The notes under the pieces: generated by a model | Told to the model about the DNA's origin: nothing | Databases searched by the model: none | What the model saw: the letters and a program-made list of their open reading frames with translations, nothing else | Made by a program: the position numbers and the translations under genes | In this document: positions 7,750 through 35,255 of the stretch, in pieces | How positions within the stretch are numbered: position 1 is the stretch's first letter | Layout: each line of letters opens with the position of its first letter | From: Minisyncoccota bacterium | Lineage (GTDB): Bacteria > Patescibacteriota > Minisyncoccia > UBA6257 > XYB1-36-10 | Direction of reading: 5' to 3' | Length of the DNA stretch: 64,000 nucleotides | NCBI GenBank assembly: GCA_041651415.1 | Contig: JBAZJH010000001.1 | Coordinates: 11,374-75,373, forward strand

Positions 7750-7750
7750 T

Positions 7751-7876
7751 GAAACTCTATGGCCTTACGACCGTAGAATCTTAAAGTTTCACCTCGTAGA
7801 AAGTCGGGGTTTATTAAATCTTAGCCGTAGAAACCTTGCGCTAACGCGCAATGTTTTTACGGAGATTTAATAAAAA
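7751..7876 (+). repeat. Repeat family B, copy 1 (structured ~125-nt element directly after tRNA-Leu)
   Basis: tgaaact..hairpin..aagtttca; cctcgtagaaagtcgggg; tttattaaatct .. agatttaataaa long-range complement. Near-identical core at 35130-35255. Confidence 0.6.
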
Positions 7877-7923
7877 ATAATAATTCACAGGGGAATTTTT
7901 TTGTCTGTGATATAATAAATTTA

Positions 7924-8949
7924 ATGAAACATATTTATTTTTTGGCATTTTTAGGCTTATTATCAATGTTTGGCGGGATAGCGGTTCATTATGGAGAAGA
8001 TTTAGGTTTGGCAAAAAAACAAGAAATTTCTTCCGGACTGCAGGCGAGCTTAGTTTCTATTTTTAAGGAAAATTTAGAAATAAAAGAGGAGGCGCCGGCA
8101 AGAATTTTATTTACCGGAGACATAATGCTTTCGCGGCTTGTGGAAAATCGAATTTATGTGTCAGGAGATTTTAAATATCCATTTTTGAAAATAGGCGAGT
8201 TTTTAAGCGGAGCGGATTTAACTGTTGGAAATTTGGAGGGGCCGATTTCTTCCAAGGGAGAAAATCAGGGAAGCAAGTATTCTTTTCGGGCTGACCCGAA
8301 AGTGGTGGAAGGGTTGAAATACGCAGGGTTTGATGTTTTATCTTTAGCCAACAATCATATTTTGGATTGGGGGAGAGAAGCGCTGGCAGATACGGTTTAT
8401 CTCTTGAATTTCAACGGAATAAGCACGACGGGGGCGGGAGAAAATGAAGAAGAAGCAAACCGAATAGTTATAAAAGAAGTAAAAGGGAACAAAATAGCAT
8501 TTTTATCTTTTACCGATTTATATCCGGAATCGTTTGAGGCAAAAGGAAAAAAAGGAGGAATCAGCAATTTTGACATAGAAAAGATAAAAAGCGAGATAAA
8601 AGATTTAAAAGAAACAAAAAAAGCGGATATTGCGGTGGTGTCTTTGCATTTTGGAGAGGAATACGAAACGAAAGTGTCGAAAGCAAAAAGGGAAATGGCA
8701 AGAGCGCTTATAGATAGCGGAGCGGATTTATTTATCGGACATCATCCGCATGTGGCGCAGGAGGTGGAGATTTATAACGGAAAGTTTATCGCTCACAGCT
8801 TGGGAAACTTTGTCTTTGACCAAGATTTTTCAGAAGAAACGATGAGAGGGCTCATTCTTGAAGTAGAAGTAAAAGGCGAAAAAATTATTTCAGTGAAAGA
8901 AGTTCCGATAAAAATAAACGAAGAGTTTCAGCCGGAGATAGTTATTTAG
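7924..8949 (+). CDS. CapA/PgsA-family metallophosphatase-like protein (poly-gamma-glutamate capsule synthesis family)
   Basis: ILFTGDIMLSR...GNLEGP...LANNHILDWG...SLHFGEEY...IGHHPHVAQ. N-terminal TM helix. Confidence 0.6.
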   Translation: MKHIYFLAFLGLLSMFGGIAVHYGEDLGLAKKQEISSGLQASLVSIFKENLEIKEEAPARILFTGDIMLSRLVENRIYVSGDFKYPFLKIGEFLSGADLTVGNLEGPISSKGENQGSKYSFRADPKVVEGLKYAGFDVLSLANNHILDWGREALADTVYLLNFNGISTTGAGENEEEANRIVIKEVKGNKIAFLSFTDLYPESFEAKGKKGGISNFDIEKIKSEIKDLKETKKADIAVVSLHFGEEYETKVSKAKREMARALIDSGADLFIGHHPHVAQEVEIYNGKFIAHSLGNFVFDQDFSEETMRGLILEVEVKGEKIISVKEVPIKINEEFQPEIVI

Positions 8950-9014
8950 TTTAAGAAAAAGCAAAATAGATTTCTCCGACCTTGCGTCGGAGGAATGACG
9001 CAGTAAGAGAAATC

Positions 9015-9041
9015 AAAAATCCGCCCGAGGGCGGATTTTTG
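9015..9041. terminator. Bidirectional hairpin terminator between convergent genes
   Basis: aaaaatccgcccgagggcggatttttg. Confidence 0.6.
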
Positions 9042-9042
9042 A

Positions 9043-9504
9043 TTATAAGACGACAACTTTAGTAAAATGCGCGCCGAAATCTTTAGCGGATTCTTTGTCA
9101 GAAAACCAGATGTCCAAACGGTCGTTAAAACGCTTGTTCATTCTGTCTTCCACAACGAAGACTTGTTCGCCGAAGAGTTCCGGAATTTTTACTTTAGAAC
9201 CGAGGGGAAGCCAGTTAGCCGCGACAACGCCGGGGCGAACATGATTTCCGGAAGCGGTAATAAAGGGAGTATCGTCTGTTTCTTCAGGAGAGCTGGAATA
9301 ACCAGTAACTTTTATGTAGACTTCTTCTTCATAAATTTTTCCGGAGTTCTTTATTTCCACAGGATTGTTGGAAATAAGTTCAGAAAGGTTTCCAGCGGTC
9401 TCATAATCCAATTGATTATTATTAGTTTTTAAAGGTTCGGAATTAGCGATTAATGTCGAATTAGCTGTGATAATGATACTTAGTAAGGCTAGGTAGCGTA
9501 TCAT
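9043..9504 (-). CDS. Secreted 3D-domain protein (MltA/RlpA-like fold)
   Basis: Signal peptide MIRYLALLSIIITANS. VTGYSSSPEETDDTPFITASGNHVRPGVVAAN...DRMNKRFNDRLDIWF matches the 3D-domain Asp-rich motifs. Confidence 0.6.
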   Translation of the reverse strand: MIRYLALLSIIITANSTLIANSEPLKTNNNQLDYETAGNLSELISNNPVEIKNSGKIYEEEVYIKVTGYSSSPEETDDTPFITASGNHVRPGVVAANWLPLGSKVKIPELFGEQVFVVEDRMNKRFNDRLDIWFSDKESAKDFGAHFTKVVVL

Positions 9505-9918
9505 AGGGAAGTTTCAAAACTCTTTATTAATTGACGACAATTAAGATGGTTTGAAACGTCGCCTGCCACTCTGGTTGAGGAGCTGACGGGGATGCTCGAA
9601 TTGGCTTATTTAAAGGACTTTTCCAATAAAAAACACCCTTTCGGGCATATATTCATTCTCACGAGAGAAGTATAGCATAGGCGAATTTATTTGTCAAGAC
9701 ACGAAAAGTGAGCTTGTCAAGTTGATAGATAAAGAAGAAAAGTGGTAAAATCTGCGAGCAGTTTGAAAAATCCCGAGCCAGAGAAATAAAAAAAGGAGAA
9801 AACTGATGAAAAATCAGCAGACCTTACACAGGCAGTCGGTAGTTTTTGGGTTAAAGGTTCTGGAGGCGCTTCCGGATTTGTAAAATGATTTTTAGAAAAA
9901 AAGATGTAAAATAAAGAA

Positions 9919-10422
9919 ATGGGAGATTATACGACTTTGGCTTTGGTTTTGGATAAAGAGATTGTTGGCGAAAGCGACAGCGAGGTGCATTTTTTTACGG
10001 AAAAACTGGGAAGAGTGACGGCAAGAGCGATAGGGGCGAGAAAAATTTTATCCAAGCTAGCGGCTCATCTTGAACCGAATTCCGTTTCTTTTATCAGATT
10101 AGTGGAGAAAAAAGGATTTTTAGTGACGGACGCCATAAAAGAAAAGAATCTAAATTTTTCTTTTAAAGAACTCTTAGTTTTAAAAAACGGAACAGCGGAG
10201 TTTGAGAAAGACCAATTTTTGTGGGAAAAAATAAATGAAGGGAAATTTAGCGTAAATGAGATGTTAAAACATTTCGGTTTTAATCCGAAGTTTTCCGCTT
10301 GTTCTTTTTGCGGAGAAGAAAAACCGGATTTTTTTTATTTAAAAATACACGAGTATGTCTGCGGAAGATGCGTTTTTAATTTGGGAATTTTAGGAGAAGA
10401 GATGGTAAATATAGAAAATTAA
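9919..10422 (+). CDS. recO: Short RecO-like DNA repair protein
   Basis: N-terminal OB-fold-like GESDSEVHFFTEKLGRVTARAIGARK and a C-terminal CxxC...CxxC zinc motif (CSFCGEE...CGRC). 167 aa is short for RecO. Confidence 0.45.
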   Translation: MGDYTTLALVLDKEIVGESDSEVHFFTEKLGRVTARAIGARKILSKLAAHLEPNSVSFIRLVEKKGFLVTDAIKEKNLNFSFKELLVLKNGTAEFEKDQFLWEKINEGKFSVNEMLKHFGFNPKFSACSFCGEEKPDFFYLKIHEYVCGRCVFNLGILGEEMVNIEN

Positions 10423-10784
10423 GAATTTCCAATTAGCTTGTCAAACCTGCTTTATGACACTATGGCCGGAGCAAGAAGAAAAAAATCCAATTTTCCGCTT
10501 TTGTAAAAATAACATAATATTGTAATTCCATGCCTTGCGGCAGGCAGGCTTCGACAAGCTCAGGAATTAAATATTGTAGCCCTTCGACTGCGCTTCGTTC
10601 CGCTTCTCGACGCTATGGTCGGGGCAAGTAGGGAATAAAATGAATTTGGATTCTCGATCGAGTCGGGAATAACAGCGGATTGGACTTTAGTTTTGCCGAG
10701 GCGAGGCAAATAGGAACGATGGAATATAATAAGTTAAAGTTGCTTTAAAAAAGCAGGAAAATGAGGTAGAATAAGAATATAAAT

Positions 10785-12674
10785 ATGAGTTTGGAAAGCT
10801 TGGAGAAAAAACTTTATAAAAGAGAAAACGGAACAACAAAGAAAGAAAAAGGAGATTTTAAGAGAGGAAAAACGGAAAAAAGGGAATTGGGATGGAAAAA
10901 TAATCTTCCGGAAAATAGCGCTAAAGGCGGAAACTTTTTTTTAAATTGGAAAAGGAATCTGTTTTTGGCAGTTTTTTCTTTTTTTCTGATATCGTTGGCA
11001 ATCGGGGGATATTATCTCTTTCAAGCTTTTTATAGCGAAGGGATAGAGGTTCTTTTGGAAACGCCGGAAGGAGAGATTTATTTTGGCGTTCCTTTTAAAG
11101 TGGAAGCGGCGATTCACAATTCTTCGGGGAAGACTTTAGAAAATGTTTCTGTGGCGCTTTCTTTGCCGGAAGGATTTTCTTTCACGAGAGAAGAAAAAGG
11201 ACAAAAAGTGATAACGAAGACACTGGGGACGGTGGGAAATGAAAGTTTAAACAAGGAAGAATTTGAAATAGTGGCGACGGCGTCAACGGAAGGGACAAAG
11301 AGAGTAGAAGCGACTGTGTCTTATGGAATGGGCGGAGGCTCCGATTCTCGCTATGAAGAAAAAGGATATAAAGACATAAATATTGAAAATCCTTTAGTTT
11401 TTGCCGATATTAAGATTCCGGAGAAAGTTTACAGCGGAGAAAATTTTGAAATGGAAATTTCTTATCGCAATTTAATGCCAAAGCCGGCGGAAGGAGTTTC
11501 AATAGAAATTGAATATCCGAAAGAATTCAGATTCATTTCCAGCAAAGATAAAAAATCAAGCGACGGAGCGGGAAGACTATTTGAGTTTGATTCCATTCCT
11601 CAAGAAGAAGAAGGGAAAATAATCATTACGGGCAGCGTTTCCGGTCCCGATGGGTCTTTTTTCGAAGTGAAAGCGGCAGTGAAAAGAGAAATTTACGGGG
11701 AAGATTACGAGGTTTTAAAAATTTCCAAAGGATTTTCGATAAATTCATCGCCGCTTTCGCTTTTAATTTATGCCAATGACAGCGAAGATTATATTGTCAA
11801 ACCGGGAGATGTTCTAAAATATGCTTTAACTTATAAAAACGATACGGGAACAGATTTGAGAGATGTGATTATTACGGCGGAAATTTCAGGAGCGATGTTT
11901 GACGTTCCAACTTTAAATAGCGTCGGATTTTTTAATTCCATAAACAACACAATAACCTGGAATGCTTCCAATAAAAGCGAGCTTAGTTTGGTTCCGGCAG
12001 GAGGAACGGGAGAAGCGGATTTTTCCATAAGAGTCAAAGATTTTTATCCGATATACAGGTTAAGCGACAAAAATTTTGTTTTAAAGGTAAAGGGGAAAAT
12101 TGAATCGCCAACAGTGCCGGAAGGAGTGGGGGCCGACAAAACGACAGCGATGGCGGAAAACCAGGTGAAAGTGAGAGGGAAAATCGGCGTGGAATCGAAA
12201 GTTTTATTAAGGGATTCGATGAGCGGAGTGGTAAACGAGGGGGCTTGGCCGCCGAAAGTGGACGAAGGAACGGAATTTACAGTGCATTGGATTTTGACCA
12301 ATTACGCGACTGACGTGAAAGATGTTTCAATTAAATCGTTTTTAAATCCGGGAGTGAAATGGAAAGGCAACATAAAAGGAAACGCGACAACATTGCCGGA
12401 ATATAATGAAAGGACGCAGGAAATTGTTTGGAATGTGGGAGATGTGGCGGCGACAAAAGGCGTGATAGGAAGCCCGATTGAGGCGGTTTTCCAAATTGAA
12501 GCGACGCCGTCTATTTTATCTCTTCAAAATTATGTGCCGCTAGTTGGAAAAACAGAAGCGGAAGCGGAAGACGGTTTTACGGGGATTTCCTTGACGGCGG
12601 AAGACGAAGGGGCTACAACAAGATTGGCGGATGACCCGATGATAAAAGAAGGGGAAGGGAGAGTGATAAAATAA
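10785..12674 (+). CDS. Large membrane-anchored beta-rich surface protein, hypothetical
   Basis: N-terminal TM anchor (LFLAVFSFFLISLAIGGYYLF) followed by ~550 aa of repeated beta-strand-like modules. No catalytic motif recognised. Confidence 0.4.
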   Translation: MSLESLEKKLYKRENGTTKKEKGDFKRGKTEKRELGWKNNLPENSAKGGNFFLNWKRNLFLAVFSFFLISLAIGGYYLFQAFYSEGIEVLLETPEGEIYFGVPFKVEAAIHNSSGKTLENVSVALSLPEGFSFTREEKGQKVITKTLGTVGNESLNKEEFEIVATASTEGTKRVEATVSYGMGGGSDSRYEEKGYKDINIENPLVFADIKIPEKVYSGENFEMEISYRNLMPKPAEGVSIEIEYPKEFRFISSKDKKSSDGAGRLFEFDSIPQEEEGKIIITGSVSGPDGSFFEVKAAVKREIYGEDYEVLKISKGFSINSSPLSLLIYANDSEDYIVKPGDVLKYALTYKNDTGTDLRDVIITAEISGAMFDVPTLNSVGFFNSINNTITWNASNKSELSLVPAGGTGEADFSIRVKDFYPIYRLSDKNFVLKVKGKIESPTVPEGVGADKTTAMAENQVKVRGKIGVESKVLLRDSMSGVVNEGAWPPKVDEGTEFTVHWILTNYATDVKDVSIKSFLNPGVKWKGNIKGNATTLPEYNERTQEIVWNVGDVAATKGVIGSPIEAVFQIEATPSILSLQNYVPLVGKTEAEAEDGFTGISLTAEDEGATTRLADDPMIKEGEGRVIK

Positions 12675-12699
12675 AGAGTTAAAAGTTTATAAAGTAAAA

Positions 12700-14052
12700 A
12701 TGATAAAAGAAAAAAAACAGGAAAGCGAAAATAAGATGGAGAAGATAACGGCTTTGGCAAAAAAGCGGGGATTTGTTTTTGCGGGGTCGGAAATCTACGG
12801 AGGAATGGCAAATTCCTGGGATTACGGACCGCTGGGGGTAGAGCTTAAAAACAATATCAAAGCGAGATGGTGGAATAAGTTCGTGAGAAGAAGGGCGGAT
12901 ATGGTTGGCATTGAGACGGCGCTAATTATGAACACGAAAGTTTGGGAGGCGTCGGGGCATTTGAGAGAATTTTCAGACCCGCTCGTTGATTGCAAGGATT
13001 GCAAGGAAAGATTCAGAGCGGATGAAATGGAAGGAAAATGTCCGGCTTGCGGAAGCAAAAATCATACGGAAGCGAGAAATTTCAATTTAATGTTTAAGAC
13101 ATTTATCGGGCCGGTTGATGATGGAACTAACACGGCGTATTTCAGGCCGGAGACGGCGCAGGGAATGTTTGTTAATTTTAAAAATATATCCGAAACCACA
13201 AGAAAAAAAATTCCTTTCGGGATAGCGCAAATCGGCAAGGCATTCAGAAACGAGATAACGCCGGGCAATTTTATTTTTCGGACGCGCGAATTCGAGCAAA
13301 TGGAAATTGAATATTTTATAGACAAACCGAAAACAAAAGCAAATTGGGAAAAGTTTTTTGAAATGTGGAGAAAGGAGATGATTGATTGGATGGAAGAACT
13401 CGGCGTAAACACAAAAGAAGAAATTACGGAGTTTGAAGTGCCGAAAGAGGAGAGAGCGCATTATTCGGAAAGAACGATTGATTTTATGTATAAATTTCCG
13501 TTTGGCGAAAAAGAGCTTTATGGGCTGGCTTATCGGACGGATTTTGATTTAAGAAATCATTCCGAGGCGAGCGGAGAAGATTTATCTTATCGAGACGAGA
13601 AAGAAAACAAGTTTATTCCGCATGTGATTGAACCGACTTTTGGGGTGGAACGTTCGGTGCTCGCGGCATTGTGTTCGGCTTATACGGAAGAATTGGCGAA
13701 GACGGCGGATGAAGGAGTGGAAACAAGAGTGGTGCTGAAATTTCCGAAGTGGCTTGCGCCGATTAAAGCGGCGGTTTTGCCTTTATCAAAAAAAGAAGAA
13801 TTGGCAGAGCCGGCGAGAAAAGTTTATGAAGGATTACTGGAAGTGGGGATTGCGGCGGAATATGACGAGACGCAGAGTATCGGCAAACGTTATCGTCGGC
13901 AAGATGAAATCGGAACGCCATATTGCATTACTTTTGATTTTGAAAGCTTAAAAGACAAGGCGGTGACGGCGCGGGACAGAGACACAATGAAGCAGGAGAG
14001 GGTAGAGATAAAAAAGTTGGTGGAATATTTGAAAGATAAGTTGGAGGAGTAA
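12700..14052 (+). CDS. glyQS: Glycyl-tRNA synthetase, alpha2 (archaeal/eukaryote-like) type
   Basis: FVFAGSEIYGG..WDYGPLG, FRPETAQGMFVNF, GIAQIGKAFRNEITP, FEQMEIEYF, and a zinc-knuckle CKDCKERF...CPACG. Confidence 0.85.
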   Translation: MIKEKKQESENKMEKITALAKKRGFVFAGSEIYGGMANSWDYGPLGVELKNNIKARWWNKFVRRRADMVGIETALIMNTKVWEASGHLREFSDPLVDCKDCKERFRADEMEGKCPACGSKNHTEARNFNLMFKTFIGPVDDGTNTAYFRPETAQGMFVNFKNISETTRKKIPFGIAQIGKAFRNEITPGNFIFRTREFEQMEIEYFIDKPKTKANWEKFFEMWRKEMIDWMEELGVNTKEEITEFEVPKEERAHYSERTIDFMYKFPFGEKELYGLAYRTDFDLRNHSEASGEDLSYRDEKENKFIPHVIEPTFGVERSVLAALCSAYTEELAKTADEGVETRVVLKFPKWLAPIKAAVLPLSKKEELAEPARKVYEGLLEVGIAAEYDETQSIGKRYRRQDEIGTPYCITFDFESLKDKAVTARDRDTMKQERVEIKKLVEYLKDKLEE

Positions 14053-14080
14053 GTAGTCATAAATGTATTTTAGAATAAGC

Positions 14081-14266
14081 CAAAAACAATCCTTCAAAAC
14101 AGGGCTAATCACCAATCGTTTTTCAGGAATGTTTTTGGTGAAAAAAGAGCATAAACAATCTCTCAAAATGGGGCTAATCGCCAGCCCGCCAAAGGCGGAT
14201 AAATTTTCTTCGAGAATGTTTATGCTCTTTAATATTTAAAAAGGGAGAGGAAGGGTGATAATAATG
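14081..14266 (+). repeat. Repeat family A, copies 2a+2b (two tandem hairpins with the GGGCTAATC loop, then the GAGG..GTGATAA box)
   Basis: ccaaaaacaat..acagggctaatcaccaatcg..tgtttttgg; gagcataaacaat..atggggctaatcgccagcccgccaaaggcgg..aatgtttatgctc; gggagaggaagggtgataataatg. Confidence 0.6.
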
Positions 14267-14421
14267 TATTTTACTTCGTAAAAGTTTTTTTAAAAAAAGA
14301 GAAAGAGGCGTAACAGAGATAATATTAAGAAGGGTTTTGGGGTTGCGAGAAAAATAGTTTTATAGTATGGTTTGAAACAGATTCAGATTTGAAAATTGAA
14401 TAAAGAAAAAGGAGAGAAGAG

Positions 14422-15060
14422 ATGTTTAAAACTCTTAGCGTGCCAGAAGAGGAGCTGATTTCTTCCGCAATTGGGTATTTTAGCCTTGAAGTTATGGATT
14501 CAGGACATCTTTATAAATTTTTTTTCCCGAGACATATTGAACTTGTAGGGAAAATGGCGGAAAAAATTCTTTATGAGGGGAAAGAATATGGTTATTTTAA
14601 AAATGTTAATGAATTTTATTTAAGATTAGCAGTTGCTTTACATGATATTGGGCATGTAAAGAATGACAGAGGGTATGAAGATCATGCTGTTGCGTCCGAA
14701 TATGCAGCGAGGAAGTTTTTAGAGAGAAAATGGGATGTTGATATTGATAGTGGAGATATTAATAAAGTGTGTCAGGCGATTCGTTCTCATCGGAACAGCG
14801 ATGTTAAACCGCAAACGGATGAAGCGAGGATACTTGTGGCGGCAGATTCGGCAAGTCATCTAGTGGATGTTTGCTATGTGGATATGCTTCAAAGGTTTAG
14901 CTTAAGAGAAATAAAGGAAAAATTGGAAAGAGATTTGCTGGATTTGGAAGTTGTCCGAAGGGAGATAACAGGAACTTCTTTTTGGCGGCAATTAATAGGA
15001 CTTGGAGAAAGTTGGGGCAAGATACTAGACAACTGGCCGGAATTTCTTCTGGAAGGATGA
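14422..15060 (+). CDS. HD-domain phosphohydrolase
   Basis: LAVALHDIGHV...DH motif. SD aaaggagag upstream. Confidence 0.6.
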   Translation: MFKTLSVPEEELISSAIGYFSLEVMDSGHLYKFFFPRHIELVGKMAEKILYEGKEYGYFKNVNEFYLRLAVALHDIGHVKNDRGYEDHAVASEYAARKFLERKWDVDIDSGDINKVCQAIRSHRNSDVKPQTDEARILVAADSASHLVDVCYVDMLQRFSLREIKEKLERDLLDLEVVRREITGTSFWRQLIGLGESWGKILDNWPEFLLEG

Positions 15061-20276: not shown

Positions 20277-20298
20277 TTAGTTAAGATTGCTTTAAAAG

Positions 20299-20434
20299 AA
20301 TAGTAGCTAAAAAAACAGGGCTAATCGCCATTCCGCCAAAGGCGGACAGGCATTTTTTTAGCTACTATTCTTTTTTTCAGAATTGTCGGAAGTTCTTATA
20401 ATTTTTCAGTGAGGAGATAGAGTGATAATAAGGT
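20299..20434 (+). repeat. Repeat family A, copy 4
   Basis: gaatagtagctaaaaaaa / tttttttagctactattc (18 bp). Loop cagggctaatcgccattccgccaaaggcggacaggca. U-tract. gtgaggagatagagtgataataagg. Confidence 0.6.
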
Positions 20435-20556
20435 AATTGCCTAGTCGGCAATTTTTATTAGAAAATAGTTTTTGGATAAATTTATAAAAAGAAAAAAATA
20501 GTAAAACTGACAGAACATAGTTTTAGGAGAGGGGGTAAAGGCGAGAATGTCACAAA

Positions 20557-20696
20557 GAGCTACCGGCAAATCTTCGAAAAAAGGGCTAATCGCCAACCTA
20601 CCTATCGGCAGGCAGGAATTTTCTCAGAATTGCCGGTAGCTCTTGTTTTTTGTTCTGAATCTTAACTTTTTAGAGGGGGTGAAGGTGATAATGAGG
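20557..20696 (+). repeat. Repeat family A, copy 5
   Basis: gagctaccggcaa..aagggctaatcgccaacctacctatcggcaggcagg..ttgccggtagctc, then ttgttttttg, then gagggggtgaaggtgataatgagg. Confidence 0.6.
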
Positions 20697-20827
20697 TAGT
20701 TTTCTGCGAAAACTTATGTTTTTGAAGAGAAAACATGGTTAAAATAGGAGGTGTTTTTTGAATGTTTTTTAATGGTTAAAAAATAAGTATTTTAAAAAAA
20801 CCGCTTATTTAAGCGGTTTTTTGGCTG

Positions 20828-20856
20828 TTGACATTTTTGTAGAATGGGATTATAAT
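20828..20856 (+). promoter_or_regulatory. Consensus sigma70 promoter (TTGACA-N17-TATAAT) in the gene-free region
   Basis: ttgacatttttgtagaatgggattataat, immediately after a hairpin terminator (ccgcttatttaagcgg tttttt, 20801-20822). Confidence 0.55.
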
Positions 20857-21361
20857 TTACGGCGTAGAACATTGAAAGAAGTAAAAACGAATACCCTCTG
20901 GCTTTCAGCTAGAGGCAAAAAGTGAAAGGAGGATGGTTATGATTCGATGTGGTCCCCGGCGGAAGGAGACTTCCGCAAAGAAGAAAATTTGAATCTCGAT
21001 CGTCGCCGCCTAAGTGAGGTGCGAAGCCTCACTGGCAAAGAAAGGAGGGATTGTCATGAACAGGAAAATGACAAAATTTATCCCGCTTGAGGGATTCGGC
21101 TAGTTGCTGAGTCCTTCAAAAAATCATTTCGCCAGACTATTCTGGCGGTTATCCTGCTTCATCCGAAGCGCGCGCCTAGTTCGCCGAGATCTTTGGGTCT
21201 TGGGCTAGGTAGAATATGCGGCGGGCGACATCGGGTTGCCTGCCGACCGATCTTTTTTGAAGTTTTTTATCTCTTACCCCTTCCTCAAAAATCGTGGGAG
21301 ATATCTTCTTCTCCCAAACCGTCGGGGAGGAAAAGAGTTTACTCTTTTCCTCCCCAAATCG

Positions 21362-21394
21362 AAATCCCAACTAAAAAATGGGATTTTTTTATTT
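21362..21394 (+). terminator. Rho-independent terminator
   Basis: aaatcccaactaaaaaatgggattttttt, preceded by a 14-bp GC hairpin ggggaggaaaagag..ctcttttcctcccc (21324-21355). Confidence 0.6.
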
Positions 21395-21423
21395 TGATAA
21401 AAATATGAGAAAGAAAATGTTTT

Positions 21424-21457
21424 TGTCGATTATTGTCTGATCGGACAATAATCGACA
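21424..21457. promoter_or_regulatory. 34-bp palindrome P, copy 1 (candidate operator)
   Basis: tgtcgattattgtctgatcggacaataatcgaca. A second copy at 48913-48946 has C at the one central difference. Confidence 0.5.
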
Positions 21458-21670
21458 AAAAGGAAAATGGGAAAAAAGAAAAAAATTATAATAAAGTTAA
21501 TTATTAGATTTAATAAATCCCGCCATAGGCGGGGTGAAACTTTAAAATTATATGGCTATAAGGCCGTGGAGTTTCATTTTAAACAGAATTTAGAGAAATA
21601 TAAAAAAATGTGGCTCTTCGACAAGTTCAGAGACTAATTTTTTAAAATAAGACAAAGTGGAAAAATGGAG

Positions 21671-21699
21671 TTGACAGTTAAAAAGGAGAGGAGTATAAA
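21671..21699 (+). promoter_or_regulatory. Second sigma70-like promoter (TTGACA-N17-TATAAA) in the gene-free region
   Basis: ttgacagttaaaaaggagaggagtataaa. A hairpin plus U-tract terminator lies at ~22125-22170 (cccccgagcgcttttagcgtttgggggttttt). Confidence 0.4.
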
Positions 21700-22231
21700 G
21701 AAAAAACAGCACCTTGAATATCTTAATCTGACGCTGGTTTTTCTTTTTCTCTTCTAATCGCGATAGAAGCTGAAAAAGGAGAGCCGATTCTAAAAAAGGG
21801 AGGACACTGCGTATGATTGTTTGTATTCGTAGTATTCGTAGTTCGGTGTTTTCGTCGACGCGGTAAACCGACCATAATTGACCTTCTTTCTTTCGGTCTG
21901 CGAGATAGCTCGCAGAAGGAGAAAAATTATAATTATGCGGACAAGAAGCGGATGGCCTTAGCTTTTATAGTTGAAATAAAAAGAGGCCGTGGCTACAGGC
22001 CAGAGTAAAAAAACGAAGCCGAAGTGTCAGATGGAAAAGGAAAATTCCGTACGAGGAAGAAAAAGATAAAAAGAGGCAATGCAAAGCCTAAAAATTCAAA
22101 TAACTTTTTCTTCCCGAAAATAAAAACCATCACCCCCGAGCGCTTTTAGCGTTTGGGGGTTTTTAATTTTGAAATTTAAGGATTTTATTCTATATTGAAA
22201 AGAAGAGGATATAAATAATTAGTGAGTAAGA

Positions 22232-22334
22232 GAATTTCCGGTAAATCTTCGAAAAAAGGGCTAATCGCCAAAATTTTCTCAGAATTACCGGAAATTCTTC
22301 TAACTTTTTAAAAGTGAGGGAGAGTGATAAGATT
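22232..22334 (+). repeat. Repeat family A, copy 6, ending 9 nt before the leuS start codon
   Basis: gaatttccggtaa..aaaaaagggctaatcgccaaaattttctcagaa..ttaccggaaattc, then ttctaactttttaaa, then agtgagggagagtgataagattg. Confidence 0.6.
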
Positions 22335-22342
22335 GTAAAAAA

Positions 22343-27251: not shown

Positions 27252-27254
27252 AAT

Positions 27255-28313: not shown

Positions 28314-28374
28314 TTTAATTAATAATCTATAATAGAAAAAAATAATAAACAAGCAAAAAGGCCGATAAATCGGC

Positions 28375-28827
28375 CTAAGGCAAGAGAACGTTTTTTATAA
28401 TTTCTACCGCTTCTTTGATGTCCTCAGCTATAAAACCTGAAAGTTCATTAATGAAAGGGTGCTCATAAATTCCATCTTTTTTCATTAAAGTAATAATAGG
28501 TTTTCTAAAAGCATCGGCCCAGCCATATTCTACCATTGTTCCGATTGATACTTCTTTTGATAGAAGAAGATTGGCTAAAAAAAGATCGCATCTTGAAACG
28601 TCAAAACGATCTCTTGTAACGATGCCTTTTTTAGAACATAAAGGGTTTTCTTCTTTCTATACGAAAATTCTTTCTTCATTTTTCAGATGGTCTTTTCCTC
28701 TCATCGGAGAAAGTATTTCTATGTTAGGAGGAAGCATTTCCTTTAAATTATTTCTCCAATCAACAGTCTCGTTGTATGACAACCCTGTGATTGGTCCGGC
28801 GCAATAGACAAAAAACGATTGGTTCAT
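28375..28827 (-). pseudogene. Nucleoside 2-deoxyribosyltransferase-like gene interrupted by a single in-frame TAG at codon 57
   Basis: Minus-strand translation: MNQSFFVYCAGPITGLSYNE...EERIFV, then TAG, then KEENPLCS...DLFLANLLLSKEVSIGTMVEYGWADAFRKPIITLMKK...LLP, then TAG. The YCAGPI and D..GT..E.G.A family motifs are present. It was missed by the ORF track because of the stop. A hairpin terminator sits at 28359-28378. Confidence 0.5.
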
Positions 28828-28914
28828 ATCAATTCCCTTTCTTTTCTTTTTCTTTATATGTAAAGCTTGCTGGCTTTTTTATAGCTTATATTTAAAATAA
28901 ATGCAAAGTAATAG

Positions 28915-28986
28915 TACCCCTGGAAGGAATTGAACCCTCATCTACCCCTTAGGACGGGGCTGTTCTATCCATTGAACTACAGGGGC
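28915..28986 (-). tRNA. tRNA-Arg (anticodon CCT, tentative)
   Basis: Reverse complement gcccctgtagttcaatggatagaac a gcccc-gtCCTaa-ggggt ..gagggttcaattccttc caggggt a. Position 32 is G, which is unusual, so the anticodon call is tentative. Confidence 0.6.
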
Positions 28987-29109
28987 AAGTAAAATTGCAG
29001 CTCCGACGTATAGTCGGAGCAATGATTTTTCGATATGCTTTGCATGGGAAAAATCTATTGCTGTTTTAAGCAGTTTATTATATTATGGATTAAGTTTCAA
29101 TAATAAATT

Positions 29110-29183
29110 GGGCCTGTAGCTCAGCTGGCTAGAGCGCTTGTATGGCATACAAGAGGTCAGGGGTTCAACTCCCCTCAGGTCCA
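29110..29183 (+). tRNA. tRNA-Ala (anticodon GGC)
   Basis: gggcctgtagctcagctggctagagc g cttgt-atGGCat-acaag ..aggggttcaactcccct caggtcc a. The G3:U70 Ala identity pair is present. Confidence 0.8.
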
Positions 29184-29209
29184 CTTATGAAAATCAATAA
29201 AATTTATTT

Positions 29210-29521
29210 ATGAAAAAACCAGAATATATTTTAAAAAGTTTTTTGAACGCTTTTGGAGTGCTTGTTTATGTTTCTCTTGTGTCTTGGACGCTTTTTAACG
29301 GAGAAAGCTTTTTTGGAAATGAAAAAAGTTTTCTCATCCCTATTTTTATGCTGCTTCTTTTTGTGGTATCGGCATCTATCACGGGATTACTGGTTTTAGG
29401 CAAACCGATTCATCTTTATTTGAGCGGACTTAAAAAAGAAGCATTTTGTTTTCTTTTTGCCACTTTGGCGTGGCTTGTTCTTTTCGTTATTATTCTTGTA
29501 ACTCTATTAGTAATATTATGA
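29210..29521 (+). CDS. Small three-TM membrane protein, hypothetical
   Basis: 103 aa, hydrophobic. Its stop overlaps the downstream start (ATGA). Confidence 0.4.
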   Translation: MKKPEYILKSFLNAFGVLVYVSLVSWTLFNGESFFGNEKSFLIPIFMLLLFVVSASITGLLVLGKPIHLYLSGLKKEAFCFLFATLAWLVLFVIILVTLLVIL

Positions 29522-29883
29522 TTTCTTTTGAAGAATTTAAAAAAGTAGAATTAAAAATCGGGAAGATTTTGACGGCGGAAAAAGTGGAGGGTTCGGAAAA
29601 ACTTTTGAAACTTTCCGTTGATTTTGGTCTCGCCTTCACTGAGACTTCGGCGAGGCAAGGAGGAGATATCCGGCAAGTAGTTTCGGGCATTGCCAAAAGT
29701 TATGAACCGGAAAAACTTGTCGGCAAGGAGTTTCTTTTTACGACTAATTTGGAGCCGAGAAACATTATGGGACTTGAAAGCCAGGCAATGATTCTTGCGA
29801 CAATAAAGAAAGGAAGAAATAAAGAAGAAGTTGTTTTGATGAAGCCGGTCAAGAAAGTGAAACCGGGAAGTTCTCTTTCTTAA
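29518..29883 (+). CDS. Stand-alone tRNA-binding (Myf/CsaA/EMAP-like) domain protein, equivalent to the MetRS C-terminal domain
   Basis: MISFEEFKKVELKIGKILTAEKVEGSEKLLKLSVDFG...RQVVSGIAKSYEPEKLVGKEFLFTTNLEPRNIMGLESQAMILA. The start is reassigned to the Met overlapping the upstream stop. Confidence 0.7.
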   Translation: MISFEEFKKVELKIGKILTAEKVEGSEKLLKLSVDFGLAFTETSARQGGDIRQVVSGIAKSYEPEKLVGKEFLFTTNLEPRNIMGLESQAMILATIKKGRNKEEVVLMKPVKKVKPGSSLS

Positions 29884-29983
29884 ACCTATTCTCAAATTCC
29901 TGCCTACCGGCAGGCAGGCTTGAGAATTTGAGAATAGATTGGTTGAAGAAGGGGTTTTTTTGTGGTTTAATACCCTTGTTTTC

Positions 29984-30070
29984 GGAGGCGTGCGCGAGCG
30001 GTTGAAACGGACGGTCTTGAAAACCGTTATGTCGGAAACGGCATCGGAGGTTCGAATCCTCCCGCCTCCG
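29984..30070 (+). tRNA. tRNA-Ser (anticodon TGA), type II
   Basis: ggaggcg..acggt-ctTGAaa-accgt..long variable arm..ggaggttcgaatcctcc cgcctcc g. The 3' half is identical to tRNA-Ser(CGA). Confidence 0.8.
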
Positions 30071-30122
30071 CAGTTAGTCTTGGTATCGGTATATGTCGAG
30101 ACTCATTTAGACTTGTAACACC

Positions 30123-30890
30123 ATGAAAAGAGGTCAGTGCAAACTTTGTCTTCAAATAAAAGATTTGTGTAAGGAATCTCATATTATTCCCAGTTTTTTA
30201 TACAAATTGCTAGCCGGAAAAAATAGCCTCTTGGTGTTTCTTGATAAAATCGCTGCGCGTTTTCGCTACAACGGCGAATATGAGAGAAATATTTTGTGTG
30301 AAAACTGTGACAATCAGATAATTGGCAAGCTAGATGACTATGCAGCAAAGTTTATTCACAACGAGTTTCCTCAGAAATTAAATTCTCGGATAGAAGTCAT
30401 TAACGGACATGAGTATCTAGTGATTGAAAATGATCCGAATTACGATTACAAAAAATACAAACTTTTCTTGCTCTCCCTGCTTTGGCGGTCGAGCATTGCT
30501 TCTAGACCGTTTTTCCAGCAGCTAAAGCTTTCTTCAAGCGTAGAGGATGATTTGAGACAAATGATTTTATCGAGCAATCCAGGGGAACCCGAAAGATATG
30601 CATCATTCGTTTTCTTGCCTCCTCTTGTTTCGGCTCCTGGAGGAGGCAGAGGATTCAACACTTTCTACATGCCAACCATGTCTCCAATAATGGCAAAAAA
30701 CAACGACTGGGAGATATGCAAATTCATCGTTGAGGGGATGATGTTCTTCTTTCTGATTTCTGCGCCGCCAGGAACCAAAGTTGAGCCGTCTACACGAAAA
30801 GATAAACTCCTTCTTAAAATCTCGACACCTGAAGAACAGAGCGAGGTTCATAAGCTAATCTTTGAGATGGTGCGAAATCACAAAAGATAG
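30123..30890 (+). CDS. HNH-endonuclease-like protein
   Basis: N-terminal CKLC...KESHIIPSFL...NILCENCDN matches the HNH signature (Cys pair, E-x-H-[HI]-I-P, second Cys pair plus Asn). It starts 53 nt after tRNA-Ser, and its codon usage differs from the flanking core genes. Confidence 0.45.
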   Translation: MKRGQCKLCLQIKDLCKESHIIPSFLYKLLAGKNSLLVFLDKIAARFRYNGEYERNILCENCDNQIIGKLDDYAAKFIHNEFPQKLNSRIEVINGHEYLVIENDPNYDYKKYKLFLLSLLWRSSIASRPFFQQLKLSSSVEDDLRQMILSSNPGEPERYASFVFLPPLVSAPGGGRGFNTFYMPTMSPIMAKNNDWEICKFIVEGMMFFFLISAPPGTKVEPSTRKDKLLLKISTPEEQSEVHKLIFEMVRNHKR

Positions 30891-31031
30891 ATTGTCGTGC
30901 CGAGGCCTCAATTGGCTCGAAGGAAATCGTCCAAAATATCCTTATGGGACTTGGACTATAAAGTTCAAAACTCAAGTAGCCCGCAGGATTGAGTATGGTG
31001 TTTTGTGATCGATGCTCTTAAATAATCGTAT

Positions 31032-31670
31032 ATGTCGGAAATTACTTATAAAGAAAAATTTGAGCAGCTGCAGGATTTGCTACTTGGGGCATTCAACACT
31101 TTTTATGTGTGGAAAGCGCTTCAAACTGAGGAGAATAATGACGTTTATAAAGAAGACGGGAATTTTTGGTCGGTGGTGATTCCTGCTTTGCAGCATGAGT
31201 GGTTTATTAGCTTGGCTCGACTTTTTGAAGACTCGCGCTTTAGCGATAAAGGTAAGGTTATTTCGGTACATGCACTAATCAAAGAGCATCCAAACTCAAC
31301 AAAAGTAAAGGATGCGAAAGAATTTATTCAGAAAAACGATCGGGTATTTAAAAACATAACGAGAATTCGAGACCTTCGGCATGCACATAACAATGCGCGA
31401 TTTTTGGTCAGTCCGAAAGGATTTGAGAAAAAGTTTGAACTCAAATATGGCGAGTTAGAAGAAATTTTTGAATTTGCTGATAAGTTACTTGAAATTCTGC
31501 ATCCCGAAGATAATTATGGCTATATTCTCGACCACATGAAAGATGAGGCTCGAATTCATACTGAAGATATTATTCGAGGCTTACGTTATTTCTTTAACGA
31601 AAGGAATAAGTATAGAAAGAGGTGGGTTAATGGTGAAGTTGATGGCCCTGACTTTCCACTAAAGACTTAA
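31032..31670 (+). CDS. Hypothetical protein, possibly HEPN/Abi-like
   Basis: All-helical, with a candidate R-x4-6-H motif (RIRDLRHAHNNARF). Co-directional with the HNH gene. Weak assignment. Confidence 0.3.
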   Translation: MSEITYKEKFEQLQDLLLGAFNTFYVWKALQTEENNDVYKEDGNFWSVVIPALQHEWFISLARLFEDSRFSDKGKVISVHALIKEHPNSTKVKDAKEFIQKNDRVFKNITRIRDLRHAHNNARFLVSPKGFEKKFELKYGELEEIFEFADKLLEILHPEDNYGYILDHMKDEARIHTEDIIRGLRYFFNERNKYRKRWVNGEVDGPDFPLKT

Positions 31671-31812
31671 CTGACCGGTCTGTTTTATTTTGCCCAGTCG
31701 CCAAGTTGCTATAGAAAAACCTTTTACTGCTTGGAAAGTGTTAATTTCTAAACCGATTTATACTGCCAAGTTTTATATTCAGTGAAATTGAAAATTATCC
31801 TATAAAAATTGA

Positions 31813-32856
31813 TTAGCGGAGGGATTTGGAAATTAGTTTTTCAACTTTCTTTTGTTCTTTTTTTAGGCGGTTTTCAAATTCTTTAAAAACATAGACGTTT
31901 TTGGGATTCAAGGCGTAGGGCAGGAAGTGGAGAAGAAGATGAGCTAAGAAAGCGATAAAAGCAATGACTGCCGCAACGGGCAGTTCTTTATAAATGCCGG
32001 TTGAAAAAACAGTAAAGAGAAAGAAAATATGAATGGCGGAAAGGATGGAAAAAGACAGAAGGTCAAACCGCCAGAGATATTTTTTCTTGTATTTAACAAT
32101 CGCAAAAAGAACGATGTTAATAAGTTCCACTATGATTACAACAAGAGCAATAAGTTTCCATTGCTGGACTTCGGGATTATAAATCACATTGAGATTGGGA
32201 TAGTAGTTAAATCCGATAAATTGATACCAGTTATTTATGCCGTAAGGAATAACGGAAAAAAGTCCGAACAGAGCGAGTCCGATTATTAAGCTTATGTAAG
32301 ACAAAATGGGGCTTATAAGCATCAATAATTCCGTCAGAAGCCGTTTAGGGTTAAGCGTGCGGATAAAGCGAATCAGAAAAGAGAAGGACAGGACAACAAA
32401 AATCCAGCCGGCCAGATTTTCATAAGGAACTCCAAACCATTCTTCGTTAAGCGGGATAACCCAATGCCAAAAACCCAGACGAATAGCAACAATGTCCATA
32501 GAGAGGTCAAGAACCAAAGCGGTTAAGGCATCCAAAAACGGGCGAAAAAACCAAGGAATATTGTATTGGTCGGACAGGAGCATAGCGCAATAAATAATAA
32601 CCGCCCAGCCGCAACCGATAGCGAGAGGAACGCCGAACATTTGAACAAGAAAGTCGGAGCTGTAGCCGTAGTTGTGCGCCAAAATGGTGTTGCCGACTTC
32701 CAAAATCATGCCGAAAGCGGCGCAACTTAAGATTTCATAAATCCGCAAAATATTTTTTTGATAATATTCACGAATAAGAATGATTACAAAAGGCACAAAA
32801 ACCAAAAATTCAAAAAAAAGATAAAGATTTATATTTAAATAAGGAAGAGATGACAT
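31813..32856 (-). CDS. Polytopic membrane protein (resembles the carotenoid-biosynthesis-associated PF04240-like family)
   Basis: ~9 TM helices. The conserved aromatic-rich segment GFWHWVIPLNEEWFGVPYENLAGW is present. Family-level guess only. Confidence 0.35.
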   Translation of the reverse strand: MSSLPYLNINLYLFFEFLVFVPFVIILIREYYQKNILRIYEILSCAAFGMILEVGNTILAHNYGYSSDFLVQMFGVPLAIGCGWAVIIYCAMLLSDQYNIPWFFRPFLDALTALVLDLSMDIVAIRLGFWHWVIPLNEEWFGVPYENLAGWIFVVLSFSFLIRFIRTLNPKRLLTELLMLISPILSYISLIIGLALFGLFSVIPYGINNWYQFIGFNYYPNLNVIYNPEVQQWKLIALVVIIVELINIVLFAIVKYKKKYLWRFDLLSFSILSAIHIFFLFTVFSTGIYKELPVAAVIAFIAFLAHLLLHFLPYALNPKNVYVFKEFENRLKKEQKKVEKLISKSLR

Positions 32857-32958
32857 AAAGATTATTTCTTAATATTTTATTTACGTATTTTTTAATTTTA
32901 TAACAGATTCTTAATTTGGTATAATTTAATCATTAAAATTAATTTTTTGTTTTAGACC

Positions 32959-33204
32959 ATGAAGCTTAATCAAAAGGGGTTGGCGATGACTTTGGGAGTA
33001 ATGTGGGGAGTTTGTTTTTTCGCCATGACTTTAATTTCGGCGAATAACGGATATGCGGGAGAATTTTTAAAAATTTTTGTCGGGGTTTATCCGGGTTATG
33101 AAATAAGCGTGGCGGGAAGCGTTACCGGACTGGTTTATGGGTTTATTGACGGATTTGTCAGCGGATACATTCTTGTTTGGCTTTATAATAAATTTTCCAA
33201 ATAA
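32959..33204 (+). CDS. Small two-TM membrane protein
   Basis: 81 aa, Gly/aromatic-rich TM helices. Confidence 0.35.
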   Translation: MKLNQKGLAMTLGVMWGVCFFAMTLISANNGYAGEFLKIFVGVYPGYEISVAGSVTGLVYGFIDGFVSGYILVWLYNKFSK

Positions 33205-33206
33205 AA

Positions 33207-33473
33207 ATGGCGGAAATAAGAAAAAAAATCTGGCCAGAATATTTTGAAGCAGTGGAGTCCGGGAAAAAGAAGTTTGAATTGCGTTTAAATGATTTTGAAA
33301 TAAAGGAAGGAGACACGCTTATACTAGAAGAGTGGAATCCCGAAACGAAAGAATACACAGGCAGAAAAACGGAAAAGAAAGTAGTAAGGGTTGATAAGTT
33401 TATGATAGACAAATTATTTTGGCCGGAAGAGGAAATAAAAGAAAAAGGAATTCAGATAATGTCTTTAGAATGA
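33207..33473 (+). CDS. ASCH/DUF3850-like small PUA-fold protein
   Basis: IWPEYFEAVESGKKKFELRLNDFEIKEGDTLILEEW...YTGRK matches the DUF3850/ASCH N-terminal pattern. Confidence 0.45.
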   Translation: MAEIRKKIWPEYFEAVESGKKKFELRLNDFEIKEGDTLILEEWNPETKEYTGRKTEKKVVRVDKFMIDKLFWPEEEIKEKGIQIMSLE

Positions 33474-33769
33474 AAAATATAACAAAAACGACTTTATTTA
33501 CGGCAGGACTGTCTTTTGTGACGGTAGCTTTGGCGATTTTTATGCAACTTAGAGCGGAGGAAAGTTTGTCTTTAAAATGCAGTTATCTTGACCCGATTGG
33601 CATAGATATTTTGGCGTTTTTGGCCGCTCTATTTTTAGCAACAGAGGGAATAATCAGAATTTACGAACATAAAAATTATTCTTTACTAAAACAGGCGACG
33701 AGAGCTATTCGAGTGGCGTTCGGATGCGCGATTATGATGCTCCATATCTTGCAGTTTTGGTATAAGTAA
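33470..33769 (+). CDS. Small membrane protein (start reassigned to the Met overlapping the upstream stop)
   Basis: MKNITKTTLFTAGLSFVTVALAIF... with three predicted TM helices. Confidence 0.35.
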   Translation: MKNITKTTLFTAGLSFVTVALAIFMQLRAEESLSLKCSYLDPIGIDILAFLAALFLATEGIIRIYEHKNYSLLKQATRAIRVAFGCAIMMLHILQFWYK

Positions 33770-33965
33770 TAAATAAAAGATAAAGGTGGATTCCCGCCTT
33801 CGCGAGAATGACAGGTTGAAGCTTCTTAATATTAATTGGCTCATAAATTAAAAAAAGATAGATTTCTATTTTTGTGAGAATGACGGAAAGTTTTTCACAT
33901 GGGACAATGTGGTATAATTAAATTAAAGTCGCAGCGTTTCTTTATAAATTAATTTTTAATTATTT

Positions 33966-34076
33966 ATGTGCCAAGAATGCGGATGCGAGCCGTGCGGAAA
34001 ATGTGGAGCGAAAATTGAAGACGGAAAATGTTCGGGATGCGGAAAACCGGCTGAGGAGTGCGAGTGTGAAGGCTAG
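33966..34076 (+). CDS. Cys-rich 36-aa peptide (11 Cys), possibly metallothionein-like
   Basis: MCQECGCEPCGKCGAKIEDGKCSGCGKPAEECECEG. An extended -10 (tgg tataat) lies ~30 nt upstream. Not in the ORF track because of its length. Confidence 0.3.
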   Translation: MCQECGCEPCGKCGAKIEDGKCSGCGKPAEECECEG

Positions 34077-34118
34077 TTTTTAAATTAAAAACAGAAAGGT
34101 CGCAAATATTATATTTTT

Positions 34119-34316
34119 ATGGGAAAATTAAATGTTTTAGATTGGGTGGCTTTAATTCTGACAATTATAGGCGGATTAAACTGGGGTTTAGCTCCGATGG
34201 GAATAAATTTAGTGACGATGATTCTTAGCGAAGGAATGTGGGCTAATATTGTTTATTACTTAGTCGGACTTTCCGCTATTTATCTTTTGATTATTTCGCC
34301 GAAACTAAGAAAGTAA
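34119..34316 (+). CDS. DUF378-like small membrane protein
   Basis: LDWVALILTIIGGLNWGLAPMGINLV...YYLVGLSAIYLL matches the DUF378 pattern. Confidence 0.5.
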   Translation: MGKLNVLDWVALILTIIGGLNWGLAPMGINLVTMILSEGMWANIVYYLVGLSAIYLLIISPKLRK

Positions 34317-34391
34317 TTTTAAAAGATAATTCTAAAAAAGCGGCTTCAATATTTTATCGGAGCCGTTTTTTTGTGTTAAAATTATCGAAAG

Positions 34392-35132
34392 ATGTGGAGC
34401 AAACTTAGTCGAGACACAAGAAGGGTGATTTTGGCGATTTTAGCCGCGGGAGCGATTATTTTTGCTGTCCAGATTTTTGAAATTATTTGGTATTACGGAG
34501 TGCAGGGAGTAAAACTGAAAGCGGAGACGCAAGCGTTTTCCTTGGAGAGAGAAGTATCACTTGGAAAAATTTTAATAATAGGAGACAGTACGGGGGCGGG
34601 AACAGGAGCAAACAGTTCAAAAGAAACAATTGCCGGATTTTTGGCGGAAGAAGGATTTTTTGTAAAAAATAAAGCGGAATGGGGGGCGATGACGGAAGAA
34701 ATTGTCGGACAGCTTAAAGGAGAAGAAAAAAAAAATTATGATTTAGTCCTTATTTTTACCGGAGGTAATGACATTCTATGGTTCTATGATTTAGATAAGA
34801 CGGTTTTAAATTTGGAAAAAACTTTGGAAAAAGCGAAGGAAGTTGGGAGGAGAGTGGCAATAGTGCCGCCCGGGAATGTGGGACTGGCGCCTATGTTTAA
34901 AGAACCGGTTGGGCTTCTTTACACGAGAAGAACAAAGTTTGTTAGATCGGAATTTATGAAAGTAGCGAAAGAAAAAGGAGCTATTTATGTGGATTTATTT
35001 ACGGATAATTTAGAAGAACTTTTTTCCGGAGAGCCGCTTAAATATTTTGCTTCGGATTTGCTTCATCCAAGTTCGGAAGGATATAAAGTGTGGTATGAAA
35101 AATTAAAGGAAGCGCTGAATGGAGAAAAATGA
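34392..35132 (+). CDS. SGNH/GDSL-family hydrolase
   Basis: ILIIGDSTGAG (block I Ser), IFTGGNDI (block III), and a C-terminal DLLHPS (Asp/His). N-terminal TM anchor. Confidence 0.65.
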   Translation: MWSKLSRDTRRVILAILAAGAIIFAVQIFEIIWYYGVQGVKLKAETQAFSLEREVSLGKILIIGDSTGAGTGANSSKETIAGFLAEEGFFVKNKAEWGAMTEEIVGQLKGEEKKNYDLVLIFTGGNDILWFYDLDKTVLNLEKTLEKAKEVGRRVAIVPPGNVGLAPMFKEPVGLLYTRRTKFVRSEFMKVAKEKGAIYVDLFTDNLEELFSGEPLKYFASDLLHPSSEGYKVWYEKLKEALNGEK

Positions 35133-35255
35133 AACTTCACGGCCGTAAGGCCGTGGAATCTTAAAGTTTCACCTCGTAGAAAGTCGGGTTTTATTAAATC
35201 TTTACCGCTTCAACTCCCTAGCTAACGCGCGGGGTTTTCGCGAAGATTTAATAAA
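35130..35255 (+). repeat. Repeat family B, copy 2, beginning at the SGNH stop codon and lying upstream of the grpE promoter
   Basis: tgaaacttcacggccgtaaggccgtggaatcttaaagtttcacctcgtagaaagtcgggttttattaaatctt...ctaacgcgcggggttttcgcgaagatttaataaa. The inner stem shows compensatory changes relative to copy 1 (cacggcc/ggccgtg versus tatggcc/gaccgta). Confidence 0.6.

Follow-up and report, generated by a model that had tools for sequence, protein, structure and literature searches.

The BOX and SPRITE repeats of Streptococcus are modular, mirror the coding bias of their hosts and are enriched at the 3′ ends of coding sequences (CDSs); SPRITE resembles a Rho-independent terminator, and a terminator role has been proposed for both pneumococcal SPRITE and BOX (PMC3049150). 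Here we describe a palindromic repeat element of three modules, 125 nt long in its full form, in a 64-kb stretch (39.7% GC; hereafter the window) of the 298-kb contig JBAZJH010000001.1, from a metagenome-assembled genome (MAG) labelled Candidatus Paceibacterota whose nearest named relatives are Liptonbacteria. Genomes of the Candidate Phyla Radiation (CPR)/Patescibacteria are small and are usually described as streamlined. The element behaves as inserted DNA and not as a dedicated RNA gene, and its family is probably one of non-autonomous, modular palindromic interspersed repeats of Paceibacterota, mobile or at least duplicative, of the BOX/BIME/REPIN/MITE kind.

The window carries four copies, each built from some or all of the modules M1, M2 and M3:

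7750-7874, plus strand: copy A, full, 125 nt (M1 7750-7791, M2 7792-7809, M3 7810-7874)
35130-35255, plus strand: copy B, full, 126 nt (M1 35130-35171, M2 35172-35189, M3 35190-35255)
21506-21576, minus strand: copy C, partial, with M1, M2 and the left M3 arm TTTATTAAATCT and without the M3 core (nhmmer 1.5e-21)
48995-49059, plus strand: copy D, partial, a solo, decayed, full-length M3 with a degenerate left arm, 3′ of ftsZ (nhmmer 2.8e-15)

The first-pass annotation of this DNA had reported two full and two partial copies, and the sequences were found where it placed them, with limits now refined; copy D is present as noted, although the extent first given (49013-49057) was too short for what is a complete, decayed M3. 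Self-BLAST of the window pairs A with B (E = 2e-27, 80% over 128 nt), A with C (E = 7e-12) and B with D (E = 7e-9), with no other match below E of about 0.003. No additional copies were detected by nhmmer in about 428 kb of window and related sequence, and the 10 kb past the right end of the window contain none, giving four copies in about 74 kb and three in other contigs. The element is non-coding, with stop codons in every frame of its 125 nt. In Logan assemblies of the source sample, contigs coming from either side break off within copy B, which is usual for assemblers at repeats and palindromes.

Homologous full units occur in three other Paceibacterota contigs (L007, L015 and L017), whose hosts span 37-49% GC. 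L007 belongs to Ca. Paceibacterota DeMMO3_58, with a locus of 49% GC, and came from a pattern scan of species-representative genomes that gave this one true copy and 13 chance matches; L015 and L017 both derive from JGI Ga0265297, by a pattern scan of metagenomes. Shared-protein comparison of these three loci with the window identified no orthologues in the sequence compared.

A full element is the series of palindromic hairpins M1-M2-M3. M1 consists of TGAAACT, a GC hairpin of 7-8 bp with a tetraloop, an 8-nt spacer and then AAGTTTCA; M2 is a short GC hairpin followed by the T-rich run TTTATT; and M3 is a 65-nt hairpin in which 12-bp perfect inverted arms, TTTATTAAATCT and AGATTTAATAAA, enclose a GC-rich core hairpin. 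The design originally noted from the letters (tgaaact, an inner hairpin, aagtttca and a long-range perfect complement) reads correctly in the copies. Inverted arms exist only within sub-modules (7 bp in M1, 12 bp in M3), and the composite has no terminal inverted repeats, its left TGAAACT being unrelated to the reverse complement of its right end, TTTATTAAATCT. The AT-rich arms TGAAACT/AAGTTTCA and TTTATTAAATC/GATTTAATAAA are reported as invariant across copies, including the copy in the 49% GC host, whereas the inner GC hairpins drift; the left end of L017 is written GGAAACT where other copies have TGAAACT. The L017 copy comes close to a perfect triple palindrome (49 pairs, zero wobbles, a predicted energy of -88 kcal/mol) and looks like the archetype of which the remaining copies resemble decayed versions.

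Modules are lost, reassorted and reversed among copies. The full series M1-M2-M3 is present in A, B, L007, L015 and L017, M1-M2 without the M3 core in C, M3 alone in D, and an M1-like hairpin alone in a more distant relative (L045, below). Subtypes of M3 are reassorted and reversed, and M3 can point either way with respect to M1-M2. For the M1 tetraloop, A and L015 have TTAC and B has GTAA; for the central loop of M3, A and B have TAAC and L017 has GTTA. L015 carries an M3 core that is, as a whole, the reverse complement of that of A (94% identity), and in M1-M2 it lies closer to B.

Evidence of insertion comes from orthologous sites in relatives. Syntenic contigs, outgroups included, were recovered by homologue searches with GrpE, CapA and FtsZ, and the sites of A, B and D were compared; the closest relative (Logan SRR33086896) has GrpE 83%, CapA 81% and FtsZ 95% identical to those of the window. 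At site B, the spacer between the lipase gene and grpE is 77 nt in the closest relative (L033) versus 198 nt here, with flanks that align on both sides, and the element is absent from this orthologous spacer in L033 and in L034-39. The relative's lipase open reading frame (ORF) ends in TAA at the same codon position as the element-borne TGA. At site A, the element is absent between the orthologous tRNA-Leu and capA in L042 and L043, where the capA promoter region directly follows tRNA-Leu. At site D, no recognisable M3 is found 3′ of ftsZ in L044, L045 and L047, which include the closest relative and Liptonbacteria. The DNA of the closest relative that is syntenic with the A-, B- and D-bearing parts of the window, about 41 kb in all, contains zero copies of the element, and the other repeat families of the window are absent there too. 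Because the orthologous sites are empty in the closest relative and in outgroups, parsimony places the insertion of A and B in the lineage of the window, and these intact copies are best interpreted as insertions specific to that lineage. The ftsZ site may be older, repeatedly struck or differently decayed: in L045 (FtsZ 83% identical, more distant) a solo M1-like hairpin, AAACTCCATAGCTTTACGGCCGTGGAGTT, lies at 11232-11260, directly past the ftsZ stop codon, and next to it comes AGTTTAATAA, a sequence similar to the right arm of M3. Among the identities first proposed for the element, structured repeated DNA is supported, as a multi-copy palindromic insertion absent from the orthologous sites of relatives.

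Full copies lie behind genes. Each of the five shares the orientation of its upstream gene, and four begin 0-12 nt past the end of that gene: A starts 1 nt past tRNA-Leu, the L015 copy starts 12 nt past a stop codon, and in B and L007 the upstream ORF ends in the TGA of the element itself. The exception is L017, where 177 nt separate the copy from the upstream ORF and a terminator-like hairpin precedes it by about 20 nt. Three features border copies A and B:

7662-7748, plus strand: tRNA-Leu(GAG), directly 5′ of copy A; CCA is encoded here and not in the relatives' genes
34392-35132, plus strand: GDSL-lipase ORF, whose stop codon TGA (35130-35132) is the first three bases of copy B
35293-35320, plus strand: promoter-like site of grpE-dnaK (TTGACG-16-TAGAAT), outside the element and kept in the element-free relative

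The early remarks that one copy begins exactly at a stop codon and another directly after a tRNA CCA end were both accurate (TGA at 35130-35132 ends the ORF 34392-35132; tRNA-Leu ends at 7748 and the element begins one base later). Since the promoter-like site lies outside the element and is kept where the element is missing, the element is not part of the grpE promoter. A terminator consensus scan flags the M3 core of A on the plus strand, the M1 core of B on the minus strand and M2 of C in the element's sense orientation; the best terminator fit is M2 followed by TTTATT, in L007, L015, L017 and C. At gene 3′ ends the hairpins probably act in a terminator-like manner. Functionally, the simplest view is that gene 3′ ends tolerate the insertions and that these may be of use there as terminators or insulators. 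If the element does terminate transcription, operon boundaries by tRNA-Leu, grpE-dnaK and ftsZ would be affected.

Several observations weigh against a family of mobile repeats. A Pfam scan of 30 ORFs in the window revealed no transposase, integrase, Y1/HUH or TnpB, precomputed Pfam labels in related loci include no such gene, nor do the 10 kb past the right end contain one, and mobilisation is something we infer rather than observe. Comparisons of filled and empty sites at A, B and D give AT-rich microhomology and no clean target-site duplication; for example, at B the empty site reads TAAAA and the two junctions TGAAA and TAAAT. The left 5-mer is constant and pairs inside M1, and no clean duplication can be called because this 5-mer belongs to the element. 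Copies are few: seven overall, of which four lie in about 74 kb, a density that would scale to no more than tens of copies per Mb. Identity between copies in the same genome is 73-87%, equal to identity with copies of other genomes, and divergence of this kind does not describe a recent burst. Finally, M3 covaries at four pairs with double changes, a count reached in 9 of 500 shuffles, with a covariation score reached in 3 of 500; this is only suggestive from six related sequences, yet together with the co-orientation of full copies it may leave room for constraint at the RNA level.

The first-pass annotation had also drawn a resemblance to IS200/IS605-type hairpins, which is possible. The alternative that survives best, a specific mechanism within the mobile-repeat reading and one that we regard as doubtful, makes the element a cargo-less derivative of a single-strand HUH/Y1 transposon, like a PATE or REPIN moved by an IS200/IS605 TnpA or a RAYT, whose hairpins would be recognised in single-stranded DNA and which would insert beside a short A-rich target without duplication. 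Different hairpins at the two ends, in a composite without terminal inverted repeats, fit such a derivative, as do an orientation biased with gene direction, the perfect-palindrome copy in L017, and the fact that REPINs are long hairpins of inverted REPs moved by a single-copy RAYT (PMC3116915, PMC3337134). The four bases left of the element (CCAA, AAAA, AAAA, TAAA, AAAA and TAAG) are A-rich and not fixed, and the right end, TAAA, resembles them. None of the three filled/empty comparisons gives an unambiguous target duplication, but AT-rich microhomology blurs the junctions and the absence of duplication is not firm. Neither a Y1 transposase nor a RAYT or TnpB is found in about 74 kb or in related loci, a conserved REP head of the GTAG type is not evident in the element, and the handful of copies contrasts with the hundreds typical of REPINs.

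Less likely still is a selected cis-acting RNA or small RNA, co-transcribed with the upstream gene, kept for its RNA fold and possibly serving as a 3′-untranslated-region stabiliser, terminator or processing signal. Predicted folds are much more stable than those of shuffled sequences (z = -7.7 for A and -4.9 for B), and the M3 inner-stem covariation above shuffles, the position of all five full copies close behind and co-oriented with an upstream gene or tRNA, and the pairing of M2 in A and B via U-G on the sense strand only are all consistent with selection on a transcript. However, the nearest relatives lack the element at orthologous sites, which means that the flanking genes can do without it, and partial modules exist. 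Loops, and the M3 core in its entirety, have opposite orientations in different copies. There is no overall strand asymmetry: in four of six copies the antisense strand folds no worse than the sense strand, and stem mispairs number 15 G:T versus 9 A:C, becoming 12:12 once the M3 of L015 is set to its real orientation, so that wobbles show no tolerance confined to one strand. Covariation in M1/M2 across six copies amounts to two pairs with double changes, which 146 of 500 shuffles reach. The first-pass annotation had argued from compensatory changes in the inner hairpin; between A and B this hairpin holds one true double change (C-G to U-A), and the argument stands to that extent, but it also holds one wobble and one mismatch, and M1/M2 covariation does not exceed that of shuffles. 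Palindromes can, we infer, keep their symmetry through arm-templated repair, an alternative source of paired changes. Rfam 15 gave zero matches at gathering score across the window, and around A and B only chance-level matches at E<=10, of 18.8 bits or less versus gathering scores of 39 or more. The suggestion of a small non-coding RNA is not supported, given the missing strand asymmetry, the inverted loops and M3 core, the weak covariation and the lack of an Rfam match.

The earlier suggestion of an attachment-site remnant, left by an integrative element that targets tRNA or gene 3′ ends, draws on copy A abutting the 3′ end of tRNA-Leu and is effectively refuted, as the element and the tRNA 3′ end have no sequence in common, the tRNA end is not duplicated, the other six copies lie away from tRNAs, no integrase or cargo was seen nearby, and the same 125-nt unit recurs at unrelated sites.

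Further candidates were tried and rejected. A viral, phage or plasmid origin was set aside after IMG/VR pattern scans returned only AT-rich chance matches and blastn against phage and plasmid collections returned nothing. The arms do not read as DNA-uptake sequences, TTTATTAAATC being found only inside elements, nor as parS-like or attC-like sites, which on direct reading alone would have their half-sites in the wrong order and their core motifs missing. For integron attC specifically, the cores RYYYAAC ... GTTRRRY are absent on direct reading of A and B, and the copies lie 13-27 kb apart among housekeeping genes, with no cassette array.

For the preferred reading of mobile, or at least duplicated, repeats, a mechanism can be proposed from the sequences. 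A trans-acting enzyme, encoded elsewhere, would recognise the invariant AT-rich arms; their invariance even in a 49% GC host suggests that they are read by a protein. The inner hairpins would need only to stay palindromic. Hairpins would form in DNA, during replication or single-strand transposition, and recombination between arms, or template switching, could flip loops and cores. After insertion and transcription, GC hairpins with their T-rich runs might serve as terminators or insulators that work both ways in the interval separating the upstream gene from the next promoter. A bolder version, which we consider improbable, has the putative enzyme target the exact 3′ boundary of transcription units, with the element supplying the TGA in B and L007 and lying next to the encoded CCA in A. 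If true, this would amount to a self-spreading, bidirectional 'terminator cassette' peculiar to CPR, its hairpins flipped by a rolling-hairpin or template-switch process, and such a cassette could help explain how transcription is organised in tiny CPR genomes.

The window contains other repeats. A separate family, with the motif GGGCTAATC(A/G)CC set in longer hairpins, occurs at 3266, 14102, 14171, 17812, 20318, 20583 and 22258 and is presumably what the first-pass annotation counted as its first family; it does not occur in the syntenic 41 kb of the closest relative, and a copy in L015 lies about 10 nt from the element. A near-perfect 36-nt palindrome (I4), TGTCGATTATTGTC(C/T)GATCGGACAATAATCGACA, occurs twice (21424-21459 and 48911-48946), each time about 47 nt left of a partial copy of the element (C or D), and is absent from the ftsZ site of L044. 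We considered whether C and D are halves of one element split by inversion between the two I4 palindromes; synteny rules this inversion out, gene order across D being collinear with L044 and L045, and D is a full-length M3, not a half. The motif CCTTCGACAAGCTCAGGA occurs four times (10550, 19909, 21617 and 35368), and at 35368 it lies inside the N-terminal coding region of grpE, encoding LRQAQE; GrpE of the closest relative aligns over only 82% of the protein, and the N-terminus may contain a repeat insertion. The 2 kb between tatD and leuS (20277-22342) have no convincing ORF, are dense in hairpins, promoter-like sites and repeat copies, and contain no Rfam family that reaches significance.

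The 16S rRNA gene (4153-5938) exceeds the Rfam model by about 250 nt and has inserts at 5175-5277, 5391-5496 and 5761-5862. These are homologous hairpins, each bounded by CCAGCCCCA(G/A)TTTCAC ... AGCGAAA(C/T)TGGGGCTGG, and because the three inserts are homologous and share these bounds, one palindromic unit has been inserted three times within a single rRNA gene. The ORF at 1498-1875 matches PF05635 (23S rRNA intervening-sequence protein; E=1e-34), a family that we take to include the Avd accessory proteins of diversity-generating retroelements; a reverse transcriptase was not seen beside it. Between rplS and tRNA-Leu, L043 has a free-standing ORF (485-1138) with a faint LAGLIDADG match, at a position where the window has an ORF of 56 amino acids. 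The minus-strand ORF at 49108-52611 has one Big_9 domain match and, at 49928-52002, degenerate periodic repeats of 21-39 nt of the GTCGCTGTTGGCGGCACCGGC type, which are coding repeats unrelated to the element.

Taken with these families, the element bears on how CPR genomes change. Several families of structured intergenic repeats, one of which has entered the 16S rRNA gene three times, are present in the window and missing from the syntenic DNA of a close relative, and since they are missing there, repeat invasion actively changes genomes in at least some CPR lineages. The family also breaks short-read assemblies and offers a strain-level marker. Its value lies in the presence of several repeat families in a streamlined CPR genome, in the precision of placement at gene ends and in hairpins found in flip and flop forms.

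Among known systems, classical MITEs such as Correia/NEMIS, RUP and Nezha (PMC3184786) share with the element a small size, AT-rich ends, extensive pairing and lineage-specific intergenic insertion, visible as presence or absence between related genomes; M1 and M3, taken singly, also have inverted terminal arms. Unlike MITEs, the 125-nt composite has neither terminal inverted repeats nor a clear target-site duplication. We know of no parent insertion sequence with matching ends. The PATEs derived from IS200/IS605 resemble it, by description only, in having distinct hairpins near both ends, no evident target duplication and a strand or orientation bias, but here no TnpA or TnpB lies nearby and the target tetranucleotide is undefined.

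REP/BIME and REPIN-RAYT systems of Proteobacteria (PMC3116915, PMC3337134) are likewise non-coding extragenic palindromes arranged in mosaics, often at gene 3′ ends, and M3 resembles a REPIN in its long hairpin with a GC-rich core, formed from inverted halves; mobilisation in trans by a single distant gene is presumed for both. The differences are that no RAYT occurs in the window ORFs scanned or in related loci, that copies are much sparser (4 in 74 kb) and that the conserved part is the AT-rich outer arms rather than a GC-rich REP stem with a GTAG head. BOX and SPRITE (PMC3049150) are composites of discrete modules that go missing or recombine, strongly base-paired and intergenic, with an orientation that mirrors coding bias and an enrichment just 3′ of CDSs, and in each of these respects the element is like them. 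Unlike BOX, in which boxA pairs with boxC, each of the modules forms a palindrome by itself, M3 can lie in either orientation and no tandem amplification of an inner module is seen; the host belongs to a different phylum (CPR/Paceibacterota), no sequence similarity is claimed, and homology is unlikely from host and base composition, so that the element works like BOX without being a member of that family. The family as a whole works like BOX/BIME/REPIN-type repeats yet, as a composite without terminal inverted repeats or a clean target duplication, and with no RAYT or IS partner in the sequence covered, cannot be assigned to any of these classes. It opens no new class of biology and is a new example, in Paceibacterota, of familiar bacterial repeat and terminator DNA.

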